A stretch of DNA of 64,000 nucleotides from a bacterium. GTDB lineage: Bacteria; Bacillota_I; Bacilli_A; RF39; UBA660. Below, one piece after another: positions 8,151 through 12,314 of the stretch. The stretch is from NCBI GenBank assembly GCA_963645945.1, contig CAVIUA010000003.1:149-64148 (forward strand), read 5' to 3'. Position 1 is the stretch's first letter. The number at the start of each line of letters is the position of its first letter. Both the position numbers and the translations under genes were made by a program. Below the pieces are notes generated by a model. It did no database searches. It was not told the DNA's origin and saw nothing but the letters and a program-made list of their open reading frames with translations.

Positions 8151-9875
8151 TTAGATTATTTCATCAATATCATCTTTTACTTTTTTTTTTTTATGATTGT
8201 TTTTTTTGCTCTTGTAATAATTATTTTTTTGATGTTGATACTTATTTTTATTTTTTTTCTTAGGTGCATTTGTTTTATTGTTTTCAACTTTTACTTCATT
8301 GATAATTACAGGTATGTTTTCATTTTTTTCTTTAACAATTACTTTTTCCGATTCTGCAGGACTTGGTGTATTGTCTTTCAATTCAACATTTTTTACTTCT
8401 TCAGTAACAATGACAGGTTCAATTGTCTTATCTTGCTTAGGTGTATTTAATATTTCATCTATCGTTGGTGAAACATAAGACTTTACCTTTGGTATATTTA
8501 TTTCAATATTACTTGGTGTATCTACTATTTCAGGTATTGTTACTGCAGGTTCTTCTTTAACTTTTTCATTTACAATATCTTTTACTTCATTTACAATATC
8601 TTCATTATCTTCTTGAACTGATTCATTTATAGATAACATATCATTTAACTCATTTGATATATCTATATTTTCATTTTCTTTCTTTTTAAAGATACTTCCA
8701 ATAATAGCAAATTTTGATAATTTTTCTTCAATAGCTTGATTTTTGGCAGCTACTCTTTTAGCTTCTTGTTCTTCTACTTCTTTTCTGACAACTTTAAACT
8801 TATATAATAATTCATCAGAAATAATTATGAATGTACTTATATCATTATCTGTATCTTCACTATATAATATTGGCTTACCTGTTGAATCGTGAGCATCTAA
8901 TAATTCTTCAATTCTAGGTACTTCAATAATTTCATATTTACTTTCATCTATCTTTTCTCCAGACTTACTCGATACTATTGCTCTATCATATTCTCTTAAT
9001 ATACCTCTTACTGTTGATTTATATATATCTTTTTTACTTCTATTAGTTAAGAAATTATAAATAACTATATATAATAGTGCTAAACTTAGTATACCAACAA
9101 TTATACCTAGTACTAAAGCAACTGGTTTCTTTATTTGTGACATATAATTTCTTTCTAATGTACCAGAATTATTTATATCACTTGTATCAATACCTATATT
9201 TATTGTTTGTTCTGACATAGGTATCGCAATTACTAATTTACTTGTTTTATTAAAATCTTCTTTTAGTAGAGAACTTTTGCCTTCTACATCAATTGTAAAT
9301 GTTAATACTAATTTGCTGTTTACTGATAAGGCATATTCTTTTTTAAATGCATTTACATAATTATTATATTCATCGTAGTTAATGCTTATATCTTTATCTA
9401 CTCTAAAGCTTGATCCTGATATTTTTTCTTTTGTATCTTTTAATAAGACACTTGGTTTTTTATATAACACTTTGTTATTATCGTTTGGATCGGATATTAT
9501 TAAATCGGCTGTTACTTTATAATTATATGTATATTCCATTTTTTCTTCTGAATGCATTTCATAAGTAAATGTTGGTACTATATTTTTAATTATACTTGCA
9601 ATATATTGCATATCTTTATCTAGATATTGTTCTTGATAATAATTATTATCTTTTAAATATACTTTGTAATCTATATTACCTAATTCATTATATCCTATAT
9701 ATGATTCAGCTTTTGTATACATTGATCCTTTTAATACTAGAAATGTTAATCCTAACATAATTAATGTTGGTATTAACATATAAAATAGCCATCTCTTAGT
9801 AGTATATGGTTTAATCTCAGTAGGTTTTTTATCTAGTTTTGGATTTTTATTAGGATCCAAATTATTATTTTTCAT
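8151..9875 (-). CDS. DUF5305-like bitopic membrane protein with long Lys/Glu-rich C-terminal tail (fibre locus A)
   Basis: 574 aa with topology TM, ~210-aa ectodomain, TM, cytoplasmic domain. It is a clear paralog of 21021-22115 (DYKVYLKDNNYY..QYIAS..FTYE). The start lies 2 nt after the stop of the upstream peptidase gene. Confidence 0.6.
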   Translation of the reverse strand: MKNNNLDPNKNPKLDKKPTEIKPYTTKRWLFYMLIPTLIMLGLTFLVLKGSMYTKAESYIGYNELGNIDYKVYLKDNNYYQEQYLDKDMQYIASIIKNIVPTFTYEMHSEEKMEYTYNYKVTADLIISDPNDNNKVLYKKPSVLLKDTKEKISGSSFRVDKDISINYDEYNNYVNAFKKEYALSVNSKLVLTFTIDVEGKSSLLKEDFNKTSKLVIAIPMSEQTINIGIDTSDINNSGTLERNYMSQIKKPVALVLGIIVGILSLALLYIVIYNFLTNRSKKDIYKSTVRGILREYDRAIVSSKSGEKIDESKYEIIEVPRIEELLDAHDSTGKPILYSEDTDNDISTFIIISDELLYKFKVVRKEVEEQEAKRVAAKNQAIEEKLSKFAIIGSIFKKKENENIDISNELNDMLSINESVQEDNEDIVNEVKDIVNEKVKEEPAVTIPEIVDTPSNIEINIPKVKSYVSPTIDEILNTPKQDKTIEPVIVTEEVKNVELKDNTPSPAESEKVIVKEKNENIPVIINEVKVENNKTNAPKKKNKNKYQHQKNNYYKSKKNNHKKKKVKDDIDEII

Positions 9876-9877
9876 TA

Positions 9878-11011
9878 TTACACCTCTTCACTTAGCCATA
9901 CTGTTGGAATTCCTGCATAAGGAATCATACTAACAGCCTTTCCAATAACAGATGCTTGATCAATTGTCCAGGCATCTTCTGTTTTGTTATTGTCCCCTTT
10001 TGTTCTAAAATAGTAATTATCGTTTATTTTTTCCATTTTTATAATACGATGAACTACTACAATATCATTATATTTATATACTAATACTTCGCCTACTTTT
10101 AAGCTTCCAATATTATCTTGGGCAATTTTTTCTACTATTACAACGTCACCTTTTTTTATTTTTGGATTCATTGAATCAGAGCCTATTGCTAGAGCATAAA
10201 ATTTAAATGTTCCAGATGTAAGTGCAATAGTTAATGATAGAAAAATAACTAACACGACTGTTGTGATACGTTGAACTAAAAAGTTTCTTCTTATATCAGA
10301 TTTTCCTTTTTTATTACCAAATTCCTTATATGTTTTCCATAGTATATATGCTGGTAATAATAATTCAATTATAGTTTTAAAATATTCATTAATATTTGGA
10401 ATGATTGGTATTATATATGAAGGTATCTCCATGATTAGTCTATATATTATACCCGGTCCATAACCAAACTTATAACATAAATATGTTAGAAAAAAGTTTT
10501 TTGATAATATTGGTAGTACACTCATGTAGCACATTTTTACAATACCTAAGGTAGTATTTAGATCATATGCATAAGCTACTAGCTTGGTATCTATTGTAAC
10601 AAACATAAAACATGATAGTATGATAAGAAATTTATTATTTTTTGTCTTACTTATAATTTCATATCTTAATATTTCTGATATTCCTATTGTTAATATTATT
10701 GGCACTGTATTTCTTATTATTCCTAATATTGATAAACTATATCTAGTTTTTAAAAAACCAACTATTAGTCCTGATAAGTAGATTACAATGTAATAAATAA
10801 AACAATATATTAGAATACTTAAGATATTATCTTTTTCATACAAATTTCTCTTTTTTTCATGACCAGATACAAGTATTGTTATACCAAGTATTATGGCAAG
10901 AAAAAGTATCATGCTATATTCTTCTAATTTATTTGTTACAAAAATATCTAAAAGAAGTATCATTATTGTTGCTAATTGTATCAAAGCTAGTTTTTTTTCA
11001 CCCGTTTTCAT
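9878..11011 (-). CDS. polytopic membrane domain fused to archaeal/ER-type (SipW-like, S26B) signal peptidase I
   Basis: C-terminal ~130 aa carry GSDSM (Ser), VVHRI (His) and KGDNN boxes. N-terminal ~250 aa are 7-8 predicted TM helices. I prefer ATG 11011 (MKTGEKK, RBS AGAGGGAA) over the TTG at 11047, giving 377 aa, the same length as the paralog at 22132-23265. Confidence 0.8.
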   Translation of the reverse strand: MKTGEKKLALIQLATIMILLLDIFVTNKLEEYSMILFLAIILGITILVSGHEKKRNLYEKDNILSILIYCFIYYIVIYLSGLIVGFLKTRYSLSILGIIRNTVPIILTIGISEILRYEIISKTKNNKFLIILSCFMFVTIDTKLVAYAYDLNTTLGIVKMCYMSVLPILSKNFFLTYLCYKFGYGPGIIYRLIMEIPSYIIPIIPNINEYFKTIIELLLPAYILWKTYKEFGNKKGKSDIRRNFLVQRITTVVLVIFLSLTIALTSGTFKFYALAIGSDSMNPKIKKGDVVIVEKIAQDNIGSLKVGEVLVYKYNDIVVVHRIIKMEKINDNYYFRTKGDNNKTEDAWTIDQASVIGKAVSMIPYAGIPTVWLSEEV

Positions 11012-11050
11012 ACTTTTCCCTCTTTCAAATATTTTTGTAATAAACAAGGA

Positions 11051-11084
11051 TTAAGGCGTAGCAATTTAGTTTGTTACACCTTAA
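11051..11084 (-). promoter_or_regulatory. intra-operon stem-loop between subunit gene and peptidase gene
   Basis: The arms 11071-11084 and 11051-11064 form a 14-bp stem (one G.U, one mismatch) with a 6-nt loop on the minus-strand RNA. The trailing U tract is weak. Confidence 0.4.
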
Positions 11085-11100
11085 TTGTTTATACTTTCTG

Positions 11101-11712
11101 TTATTCAGCTTGAGAATATACTAATGTTACACCCAAGTTAGAAATTGTTACATCTGCTGATGGTAATAGATTTGAATCAGTAAAATCTTTATATTTTAAA
11201 GTTAATACCATGTTTCTAGTTTCATCTTTTGCTAATGTATCTCCAACTGCTACTGCTTGTCCTGCCTTAGCATCTCCTGCAGCATATACTAATGTATACT
11301 CAAGTTTATCACATACTTTTGTAGCATCTGTTGCTGCTGTTGCAGCTCCTGTTTTTCCTGTACAAGTTGGTGTAGGAATTGTTACAGTACTTATTTTTGC
11401 ATTGTAAGTTCCTGTATTTGAAACAGCTACATTATAACTAACTGAATCTCCAGGTGTCTTAAATGTTACATTATAGGTTTGAATTACTGTATCAGATAAA
11501 GTTGGTGCAGTTACTTCTGTTGCTGTACCTGTCTTTACTGCATTTCCTAAATTACTGAATTTTACTTTCCATGATGATGTTTGTACTGATGCATTACCAT
11601 TAATAGTTAATGTTTCACTAAATGCTGCAAAACCAATACCAATAGCAACTATTGAAATAATTAGGGCTGCAACAACTAGTACTTTCATTTCTCTTCCATT
11701 ATTTTCTTTCAT
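11101..11712 (-). CDS. secreted TasA/camelysin-like fibre-subunit candidate with SipW-cognate-type signal peptide
   Basis: 203 aa. A basic N-terminus and TM are followed by IGFAAFSETLTINGNASV. It has a conserved Cys pair (PTCTG...VC) and the C-terminal strand ISNLGVTLVYSQ. Strong RBS AAGGAGAA. Confidence 0.6.
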   Translation of the reverse strand: MKENNGREMKVLVVAALIISIVAIGIGFAAFSETLTINGNASVQTSSWKVKFSNLGNAVKTGTATEVTAPTLSDTVIQTYNVTFKTPGDSVSYNVAVSNTGTYNAKISTVTIPTPTCTGKTGAATAATDATKVCDKLEYTLVYAAGDAKAGQAVAVGDTLAKDETRNMVLTLKYKDFTDSNLLPSADVTISNLGVTLVYSQAE

Positions 11713-11726
11713 ATTTTTCTCCTTCT

Positions 11727-12314
11727 TTAACTTTGTGAATAAATTATTGATGCAGATAAATTGGTAAGTTCAACTCTTTCTGTTGGCCAGGTATTACCAA
11801 TGTATCTCATAATAAGTTTTAGGGTTTTCTTACTACCTGCTGGTAGTAAATCATCTATCATTATTCTTGACCCGTTTGCATAATATAGTTCATATTTGAA
11901 GCTATTACAGACTGTTTCGGCATCAGTAACGGCAGTTGTAATATCTTCTGATACTCCCTTACAAATTGGATCCAAAATTGATATTGTTGAAACTTTAGCA
12001 TCTAAATTGCCATCGTTTACAACGTTAAATTCATAGGCAACAACATCTGTCTTACTACTAAATTCAACTTTAAATCTATCGATACTTGTTGAATTTTTGT
12101 TAATAATTGGCCTACTTACTTCTTGAGCCTTTCCTGTTATTTGGACTTTGGATAAGTTTTCAAAATGGATATCCCATTTTCCATTGTTGACACTAGATGC
12201 GTAGCCAGATATTTTCACGGTTGAACTAATGGCAACTAATGATACTCCTAACCCGAGAATAGCAATTATCAATGTGACAACGACTATCAGTTTGTTCAAG
12301 TTCTTATTATTCAT
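11727..12314 (-). CDS. secreted fibre-subunit-like paralog
   Basis: 195 aa with a TM then ISSTVKISGYASSV, the same Cys pair (PICKG...VC) and the C-terminal LTNLSASIIYSQS. It aligns with 11101-11712. Confidence 0.55.
   Translation of the reverse strand: MNNKNLNKLIVVVTLIIAILGLGVSLVAISSTVKISGYASSVNNGKWDIHFENLSKVQITGKAQEVSRPIINKNSTSIDRFKVEFSSKTDVVAYEFNVVNDGNLDAKVSTISILDPICKGVSEDITTAVTDAETVCNSFKYELYYANGSRIMIDDLLPAGSKKTLKLIMRYIGNTWPTERVELTNLSASIIYSQS

Follow-up and report, generated by a model that had tools for sequence, protein, structure and literature searches.

TasA-type fibres constitute the protein scaffold of Bacillus biofilms, and archaeal relatives of these fibres bundle cells. Within the same superfamily, the subunit AbpX polymerises by donor-strand complementation, as seen in a fibril resolved by cryo-electron microscopy (10.64898/2026.01.04.697558). 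The AbpX loci of bacteria and archaea encode (i) a type I signal peptidase (SPase I) with ten transmembrane (TM) helices, (ii) a DUF5305 protein termed an SPase accessory, (iii) minor subunits, and (iv) tip proteins; fusions of DUF5305 and SPase have been noted as well, and two-component systems lie near the bacterial loci (10.64898/2026.01.04.697558). In the haloarchaeal Tat-fimbriae (tafi), the DUF5305 protein TafG is paired with the signal peptidase TafD, for which it has been proposed as a helper (PMC11821415, PMC12337348), and deletion of tafD blocked both the processing of TafA and the formation of fibres (PMC11821415). An SPase-DUF5305 module has as such already been outlined in 2025-2026 from comparative genomics, TafD of a haloarchaeon being the only component whose function was tested. 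The subject of the present analysis is locus A, located on the minus strand of a 64-kb stretch of contig CAVIUA010000003.1 (hereafter the window, in whose numbering all positions are given) from an uncultured, walled, low-GC (25 % GC) mesophilic lineage of gut Bacilli. Locus A encodes, in this order, two AbpX-like subunits of 195 and 203 amino acids (aa), a polytopic signal peptidase, and a 574-aa bitopic DUF5305 (TafG-like) protein, and is likely to be an AbpX-type (TasA-superfamily) operon for a surface or matrix fibre, endowed with its own dedicated peptidase.

A first-pass annotation of the window had seen in these genes a dedicated fibre assembly operon, a view supported by the homology to AbpX, by the SPase-I site followed by a donor-like strand, and by the near-invariant co-occurrence of the genes. 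It had also held the partnership of the polytopic peptidase with a DUF5305 protein to be undescribed. In light of the TafD/TafG and AbpX papers, this claim is outdated, although it stands insofar as no function has been shown by experiment for DUF5305 or for the polytopic domain. What is new with respect to the cited tafi and AbpX papers is a tail protein with a Hint domain, a conserved putative attenuator, and a subunit family of ~7,600 clusters (50 % identity) without a Pfam model.

Compared with the AbpX loci (Pyrodictium abyssi, PMC12518558; 10.64898/2026.01.04.697558), locus A shares homologous subunits with a similar processing site and donor strand, as well as the wider gene set, i.e., a multi-TM SPase I of the endoplasmic reticulum (ER) type, DUF5305, minor subunits, large 'tip' proteins, and two-component or LuxR-type regulators nearby. 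On the other hand, the host lineage of the window is absent from the RefSeq taxa listed in the AbpX preprint, the window peptidase has 9 TM helices rather than 10, the AbpX papers do not mention the conserved internal hairpin, the Hint tail protein recurs, and the large proteins of the window family lack the LPXTG motif (0/39; SLH domains were not looked for). With tafi, the locus shares an SPase I gene and a DUF5305 gene adjoining genes for donor-strand subunits; however, the tafi pilins (TafA/TafE) use the Tat pathway whereas the window subunits possess Sec-type signal anchors and are nearer to AbpX than to TafE, and TafD combines 4 TM helices with a second extracellular domain, in contrast to the N-terminal bundle of 8 TM helices in the window peptidase. 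With the tapA-sipW-tasA operon of Bacillus subtilis, the likeness resides in an ER-type peptidase dedicated to a beta-sandwich subunit of a matrix fibre built by donor-strand exchange, but SipW is small and lacks the 8-TM domain, the operon is devoid of DUF5305, and a TapA homologue is absent from the window cassette.

Subunits and cassette of locus A

The second gene of locus A (11101-11712, minus strand), preceded by a strong ribosome-binding site (RBS), AAGGAG, encodes the 203-aa protein, which exhibits a signal anchor followed by the predicted processing site GFA↓AFSETLTINGNASV (the arrow marking the site) and is probably the major subunit. The site, GFA↓AFSETLTINGNA, parallels TYA↓QWSETLSLSATI of AbpX; written residue by residue, GFA↓A-F-S-E-TLTINGNA and TYA↓Q-W-S-E-TLSLSATI both display an aromatic residue at +2 and Glu at +4, i.e., the two residues found to be critical in AbpX (10.64898/2026.01.04.697558). 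Both proteins also possess two Cys per subunit, C117 and C134 being near-invariant for the 203-aa subunit, of which about 160 close homologues were found. The first gene (11727-12314, minus strand) encodes the 195-aa AbpX-like protein, whose putative donor strand, SLVA↓ISSTVKISGYA, is deviant in that the aromatic residue at +2 and the acid at +4 are both missing, as they are from the 186-aa subunit of the paralogous locus B. Its orthologues all occupy the same position in related loci, which are numbered here with the prefix L, namely L001 (96 %), L045 (76 %) and L002/L003/L007, and the 195-aa protein probably serves as a minor or specialised subunit.

The family-wide consensus at the processing site reads G-[FY]-A ↓ A-[FLY]-[ST]-x-x-L-x-I-x-[SG]-x-A, in which a conserved SPase-I site precedes an amphipathic segment resembling a donor strand. 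The motif G-[FY]-A ↓ A-[FLY]-[ST]-x-x-L-x-I is present in 92/116 of the small and 31/39 of the large subunits, with F, L or Y at +2 in 83/92 family members, and the most conserved segment of the whole family, an alternating hydrophobic strand x-L-x-I-x-G, lies just past the cleavage site. The cleavage context of B. subtilis TasA, ...A↓AFND, is similar to that of the window subunits. Affiliation to the type IV pilins was considered and rejected: a prepilin site of the G↓F-T-L-I-E type is missing ahead of the hydrophobic segment, and the conserved site comes after it.

The relationship to AbpX emerged most clearly from profile comparisons, for which the AbpX query sequence was taken from the supplement of the bioRxiv preprint 10.64898/2026.01.04.697558. 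With hhalign, a profile of the close family matched AbpX at 86.8 %, and a profile built from 42 diverse sequences (A6) at 94.8 % (E 5e-8, 150 columns). When run against all PDB sequences, the A6 profile retrieved AbpX as the top match (9sj2, E 1.7e-4; 9rhp, E 6.6e-3) and TasA (8aur/5of1) only at E about 1. A subunit from Moorellaceae (GAAFA↓AWTETINVNG) further bridges the two sides, as it matches both AbpX by BLASTP (4e-7) and the hidden Markov model (HMM) of the gut family (2e-13). On the grounds of these sequence comparisons, the window subunits are assigned to the AbpX-like members of the TasA superfamily. Neither Pfam nor NCBIfam returned a significant match to them, and the camelysin/TasA family (Peptidase_M73), suggested as a check in the first-pass annotation, failed to recognise them: the window subunits stay below its gathering threshold, with no match at E<=0.1, and 6/42 diverse subunits matched weakly (best E 0.015). 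Searching 1.84 billion cluster representatives with a subunit profile returned 7,612 matches at E<=1e-3, of which 4,425 at E<=1e-10, the best 150 listed all belonging to the close family and offering no bridge to TasA.

Conservation of the cassette was assessed by scanning one genome per species with a 15-sequence peptidase alignment, which yielded >541 relatives confirmed by tblastn; the neighbourhood counts that follow refer to the best 79 loci of these >541 relatives, comprising 84 peptidase genes, with HMMs iterated inside the loci. The 79 loci stem mostly from metagenome-assembled genomes (MAGs) of uncultured gut Bacilli, 'Tenericutes' or 'Mycoplasma sp.', with a median GC of 27 %. A DUF5305 gene lies directly 3' of the peptidase gene in 80/84 cases, with a gap of typically 2-16 nucleotides (nt), and one to six subunit genes of the same strand lie 5' of it in 79/84; in about a third of the loci, a large protein with a subunit-like head is encoded 3' as well. 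The recurrence of the same gene order in 79 loci of other species therefore exceeds chance, and the co-occurrence across genomes on which the first-pass reading depended is thereby borne out, subunit, polytopic peptidase and DUF5305 being found nearly always together. In the window itself, this core recurs in locus B (18704-25406, minus strand), as had been reported for 21021-23865, where a subunit gene, a gene for the polytopic peptidase and a DUF5305 gene were indeed found. The same gene order is encountered in a Moorellaceae contig (L080) and in a Saccharibacteria contig, and the presence of the cassette in both Moorellaceae and Saccharibacteria, a member of the candidate phyla radiation, points to wide distribution or horizontal transfer. 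The set of subunit, polytopic SPase and DUF5305 is complete in L054 and L081 (Candidatus Nanosyncoccaceae / Saccharibacteria) and in L080. Eleven of the loci bearing this cassette, which is of a low-GC Bacilli type, belong to MAGs whose titles read Bacteroides, Paludibacteraceae, Muribaculaceae or Bacteroidaceae (L003, L004, L005, L007, L020, L030, L039, L052, L065, L074 and L079); these Bacteroidota-titled loci are probably mis-binned contigs or mislabelled bins rather than genes of Bacteroidota.

Gene layout and the intergenic hairpin

The order of the four genes and of the hairpin between them agrees within a few nt with the coordinates first proposed. The peptidase gene had been called mechanically as an open reading frame (ORF) of 389 aa starting from TTG (9878-11047, minus strand). 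As its homologues measure 375-389 aa, with one 100 % identical database protein of 377 aa, and as an RBS, AGAGGGA, is present, the start is therefore placed at the ATG at 11011 (377 aa) and not at the TTG; with 11012-11047 thus excluded from the gene, the hairpin becomes wholly intergenic. The DUF5305 gene (8151-9875, minus strand) follows after the 2-nt gap claimed in the first-pass annotation, the junction reading GAGGTG TAA TA ATG, with the RBS inside the 3' end of the peptidase gene.

Directly 3' of the 203-aa gene, the 89-nt spacer harbours a hairpin (11037-11094, minus strand) whose core of 14 bp, at 11050-11085, bears one 1x1 mismatch and corresponds to the stem-loop first seen at 11051-11084. 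The core is extended by 9 outer pairs (dG -19.2 kcal/mol, z = -5.7, 0/200 shuffles as stable) and is followed by UCCUUGUUUAUUAC and then by the peptidase RBS. In the equivalent spacer of 70 loci, about 76 nt long, a structure reaches z<-3 in 41/70 and z<-2 in 51/70; the stems are unrelated in sequence, and between hairpin and RBS there is usually a TATATTTT-like tract. A position that is kept while the stem sequences are unrelated suggests a leaky internal terminator, and, judged from the sequence, the hairpin probably functions as a leaky intrinsic terminator or attenuator. Three points speak against such a role: the U-tract in the window is imperfect, a simple terminator scan did not call the hairpin, and a hairpin of this kind is absent from locus B.

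Alternatively, the hairpin could be a full terminator delimiting two transcription units, with peptidase and DUF5305 expressed from a promoter of their own. Consistent with this possibility, the hairpin is both strong and conserved and in many loci precedes a clear U-tract, and clusters made only of subunit genes exist, e.g., locus C of the window, which indicates that the subunits can be expressed independently of the machinery. However, the peptidase ATG lies just 26 nt beyond the hairpin, and no site was picked up in this interval by the promoter scan; the nearest promoter-like site on the same strand lies ~420 nt upstream, within the 203-aa gene, and the one-strand order of subunit, hairpin and peptidase is kept in about 70 loci. 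Two separate units are for these reasons considered unlikely, and a single operon with a leaky internal hairpin is retained.

Upstream of the first subunit gene, the best promoter-like site is TTTACA-17-TATCAT with an extended -10 TG (12440-12468, minus strand), a consensus match only, such sites not being enriched in this AT-rich region (33 seen vs 41.5 expected). At the other extremity, a terminator-like hairpin of 9 bp, with 4 GC and followed by a T-run (8131-8152, minus strand), overlaps the DUF5305 stop codon and is likely the end of the locus A operon. No RNA family was found in the whole 64 kb with Rfam at gathering thresholds.

Subunit fold, signal peptidase and DUF5305 protein

The AlphaFold2 (AF2) model of the 203-aa subunit is all-beta, with a predicted local distance difference test (pLDDT) value of about 95 from residue 50 onward. 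In this monomer, residues 25-49 are devoid of secondary structure and leave the sandwich of their own subunit incomplete. The top three Foldseek matches of the model are the TasA fibre 8aur, FimG, and the AbpA bundling pilus 7ueg. Several observations nevertheless weigh against a fibre operon, namely (i) the TM-scores of these matches are low, 0.32-0.36, with E about 1e-3 to 1e-2; (ii) the single subunit and the close-family profile retrieved nothing relevant among PDB sequences; (iii) the acid at +4 is rare across the family, Glu being found in 8/92 members; (iv) the subunits are less acidic than AbpX, the mature 203-aa protein having an isoelectric point (pI) of about 5.1 and the full-length one 8.4 % Asp+Glu, vs a pI of ~4 and ~15 % for AbpX (the pI of the 195-aa subunit is 5.85); (v) the DUF5305 profile shows no similarity to PDB sequences, to the accessory subunits of the signal peptidase complex (SPC) or to any solved structure; and (vi) fibre, cleavage and complex have not yet been observed in any member of this bacterial clade. 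Because acidity is below the level of AbpX and the +4 acid is rare, calcium-dependent assembly may not apply.

The small proteins might then be secreted or surface-exposed beta-sandwich proteins that do not polymerise, such as adhesins, binding modules or camelysin-like proteins, for which the cassette would serve as a private secretion and processing module. Weak structural matches to fibres, pI and acid content unlike those of AbpX, low-significance matches of individual subunits to many immunoglobulin (Ig)-like and carbohydrate-binding module (CBM)-type Pfam families, and the long C-terminal extensions, typical of adhesins, in many family members among the matches listed would all accord with such a function. 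Yet the conserved strand x-L-x-I-x-G after the cleavage site is common to AbpX, where it constitutes the donor strand, the large proteins share the head domain only, as components plugging into a polymer would, and several paralogous subunits per locus are typical of sets of major and minor pilins. A non-polymerising role is consequently judged improbable, and the small proteins are further considered as fibre subunits.

As for the peptidase, its C-terminal ~130 aa match TIGR02228 with 89.7 bits in locus A and 82.0 in locus B (cut-off 51.85), and the catalytic residues S280 (GSDSM), H321 (VHRI), D340 and D346 (GDNN..D) are invariant in 47 homologues; the domain is an ER/archaeal-type SPase I, with a Ser/His pair and not a Ser/Lys one. 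The AF2 model (pLDDT 86) comprises 8 TM helices (2-231), a strongly basic cytoplasmic loop, TM9 (244-266) and a beta-rich catalytic domain, and the charges of the loops obey the positive-inside rule, with the N-terminus inside and the catalytic domain outside. Along the gene, the polytopic domain (aa 1-231) corresponds to 10319-11011, and TM9 with the SPase I domain (aa 244-377) and the stop codon to 9878-10282, both on the minus strand. The best Foldseek match of the catalytic part is human SEC11 (7p2q/7p2p; E about 1e-5, TMt 0.61-0.66). Of the label 'SipW fusion' given in the first-pass annotation, the C-terminal S26/TIGR02228 peptidase is upheld but the assignment to SipW is not, since NF046067, the equivalog model of Bacillus SipW, gives 58.2 and 60.0 bits for a cut-off of 190, and the family is therefore not orthologous to Bacillus SipW. 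The word fusion is likewise only descriptive, as the polytopic domain almost never occurs apart from the peptidase: in a search with this domain alone, essentially all of the 88 hits are proteins of 375-420 aa ending in an S26 peptidase, those of Candidatus Saccharibacteria and Moorellaceae included.

The residues conserved in the polytopic domain are G81, E113, R116, P202, P205, Y210 and P220; TM4 carries E113 and R116 at its cytoplasmic end, and a PIIPN..Y motif is located on the outer face. Among 30 members, the domain has no Pfam match, its profile matches no PDB sequence, and it has no conserved His. That it would be an active intramembrane protease of the CPBP/Rce1 type, acting as a second protease to break down the released signal peptide or to work on another substrate, and not a scaffold, is highly improbable: Rce1 (4cad_I) is the sole structural match over this part (263 columns, TMt 0.48, prob 0.87), and the eight-helix bundle with Glu and Arg in TM4 (E113 invariant; R116 invariant in sets A2/A3 and at least 90 % in set A4) recalls it, but this Foldseek match ranked 32nd (E 0.22), CPBP catalysis requires two His motifs, which the domain lacks, the spacing is E-x-x-R and not the EE-x-x-x-R carried by the TM4 helix of Rce1, and no CPBP Pfam match was obtained at E<=1 in the 30 members. 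Membership in CPBP/Rce1 was accordingly rejected, the weak fold match being kept as a resemblance only.

The DUF5305 protein matches Pfam DUF5305 (PF17231) well above the cut-off of 29, with 83.6 bits in locus A (44.1 in locus B), so that the domain call of the first-pass annotation holds, as does the bitopic architecture it had described. From the N-terminus and on the minus strand, the protein exhibits TM1 (aa 30-48; 9732-9788), an ectodomain of about 205 aa (9117-9731), TM2 (aa 254-272; 9060-9116), a conserved cytoplasmic domain (8781-9059), and a K/E/N-rich tail of 209 aa (8154-8780) that is lineage-specific. Lys accounts for 15 of the last 45 residues of this tail. The Lys-rich tail noticed at first is thus real in the window protein but not general to DUF5305: it is found only in the window, L001 and L045, i.e., 3 loci, the median length in the family being 366 aa. 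The tail ends with a Lys-rich stretch and then DIDEII in the window, and with DIDEVI/DIEEII in L001/L045. In other long DUF5305 members, the extra length is in the ectodomain.

Beyond prokaryotes, the eukaryotic SPC (SEC11, SPCS1/2/3) associates an ER-type Ser-His peptidase, namely the best structural match of the catalytic domain, with accessory subunits that cross the membrane and possess domains on either side of it, to which DUF5305 has been likened (proposal of 10.64898/2026.01.04.697558); DUF5305 nonetheless has no detectable sequence similarity to the SPCS proteins.

Proposed assembly, paralogous loci and significance

From homology and from the work on tafi and AbpX, we infer the following scheme, in which the cleavage site and its specificity, polymerisation, the complex of peptidase and DUF5305, and attenuation are all held conditionally. 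A single promoter 5' of 12314 would drive both subunit genes; the hairpin and U-tract after the 203-aa gene would halt most transcripts, the machinery being made by read-through, and the mRNA of the subunits would therefore exceed that of the processing machinery. Following export by Sec, pre-subunits would stay tethered by their N-terminal signal anchor. The nine TM helices would hold the peptidase domain (Ser280/His321/Asp) on the outer face, where it would cut after G-[FY]-A, and the freed N-terminal strand (AFSETLTINGNA) would fill the incomplete beta-sandwich of a neighbour by donor-strand complementation, by which the fibre would grow. Coupled 1:1 in translation with the peptidase, DUF5305 may act as its accessory subunit, with a predicted beta-rich ectodomain beside the catalytic domain, two TM helices against the polytopic bundle, and the cytoplasmic domain as a link to the inside. 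The 195-aa protein, with its deviant donor strand, might be an initiator, terminator or branch subunit, and the large proteins with a subunit-like head encoded in loci B and C could be tip or base parts joining the fibre via this shared domain.

All on the minus strand, locus B comprises the genes for a LuxR-type regulator of 464 aa (24012-25406), the 186-aa subunit (23305-23865), a polytopic SPase of 377 aa (22132-23265), a DUF5305 protein of 364 aa (21021-22115), and a subunit-headed protein of 775 aa with a Hint module (18704-21031). With only 22-28 % identity between loci A and B, locus B is an ancient paralogue rather than the product of a recent duplication. The LuxR-type protein, with ~10 predicted TM helices and a C-terminal LuxR/GerE helix-turn-helix (E 3e-13), is a candidate controller of locus B as a membrane-embedded one-component regulator. 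The 775-aa protein consists of a subunit-like signal and head, Ig/FN3-like repeats, the Hint module, and a C-terminal domain of ~150 aa. The module starts at a conserved Cys478 (SSG↓CLAKGTKITL) and ends with NIIANGLLTTDG, without the His-Asn of inteins, which suggests N-terminal cleavage or transfer by Hint and not splicing. Hint modules were found in 13 related loci with 37-93 % identity, 12 of them full-length (L059, L065, L030, L069, L062, L067, L068, L052, L073, L071, L066 and L077) and one truncated (L001); these were counted by BLAST, a simple regular expression having missed most of them. The Hint gene comes right after the DUF5305 gene in 11/13, and the L030 copy lies on the opposite strand. 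Among the papers searched, none joins TasA and a Hint domain.

Locus C (32557-36190, minus strand) contains AbpX-like subunit genes only, encoding proteins of 214 aa and 198 aa and a subunit-headed protein of 784 aa with a weak DUF6273 match; it comprises neither peptidase nor DUF5305 genes. Its orthologues stand directly 5' of the locus A genes in L045 and L004, an arrangement suggesting that a seven-gene ancestral operon was broken up in the genome of the window. Directly 3' of locus C, the genes at 30582-32460 (minus strand) encode a 228-aa response regulator of the OmpR type together with a 401-aa histidine kinase.

A more ambitious reading, tentative and of low probability in our estimate, would join these elements. 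The 8-TM domain and DUF5305 would form a membrane assembly platform, i.e., a third machine for donor-strand fibres, independent of chaperone-usher and sortase; the platform would hold the signal-anchored precursor, couple its cleavage to donor-strand insertion at the base of the fibre, and signal inward via the inner domain of DUF5305. Hint proteins of the locus B type would self-cleave at Cys478 and thereby release the base or link the fibre covalently to the envelope, in place of the LPXTG/SLH anchors that other AbpX loci of bacteria employ.

Between loci A and B, a 1112-aa ORF (13396-16734, minus strand) has no Pfam match at E<=1e-4, and is adjoined by a DUF3137 membrane protein (17461-18465) and a matchless 143-aa ORF. 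The GC content of the window is 22-31 % throughout, the GC skew of the plus strand is negative, and genes are mostly on the minus strand. FtsW/RodA and MraY, encoded in the window, show that the organism is walled.

The AbpX branch associating a multi-TM peptidase with DUF5305 is common in uncultured Bacilli of the human and animal gut. As such, these loci provide candidate adhesion or matrix structures for lineages without cultured representatives, and the compact bacterial cassettes constitute a genetic test bed for the roles of DUF5305 and of the polytopic domain.

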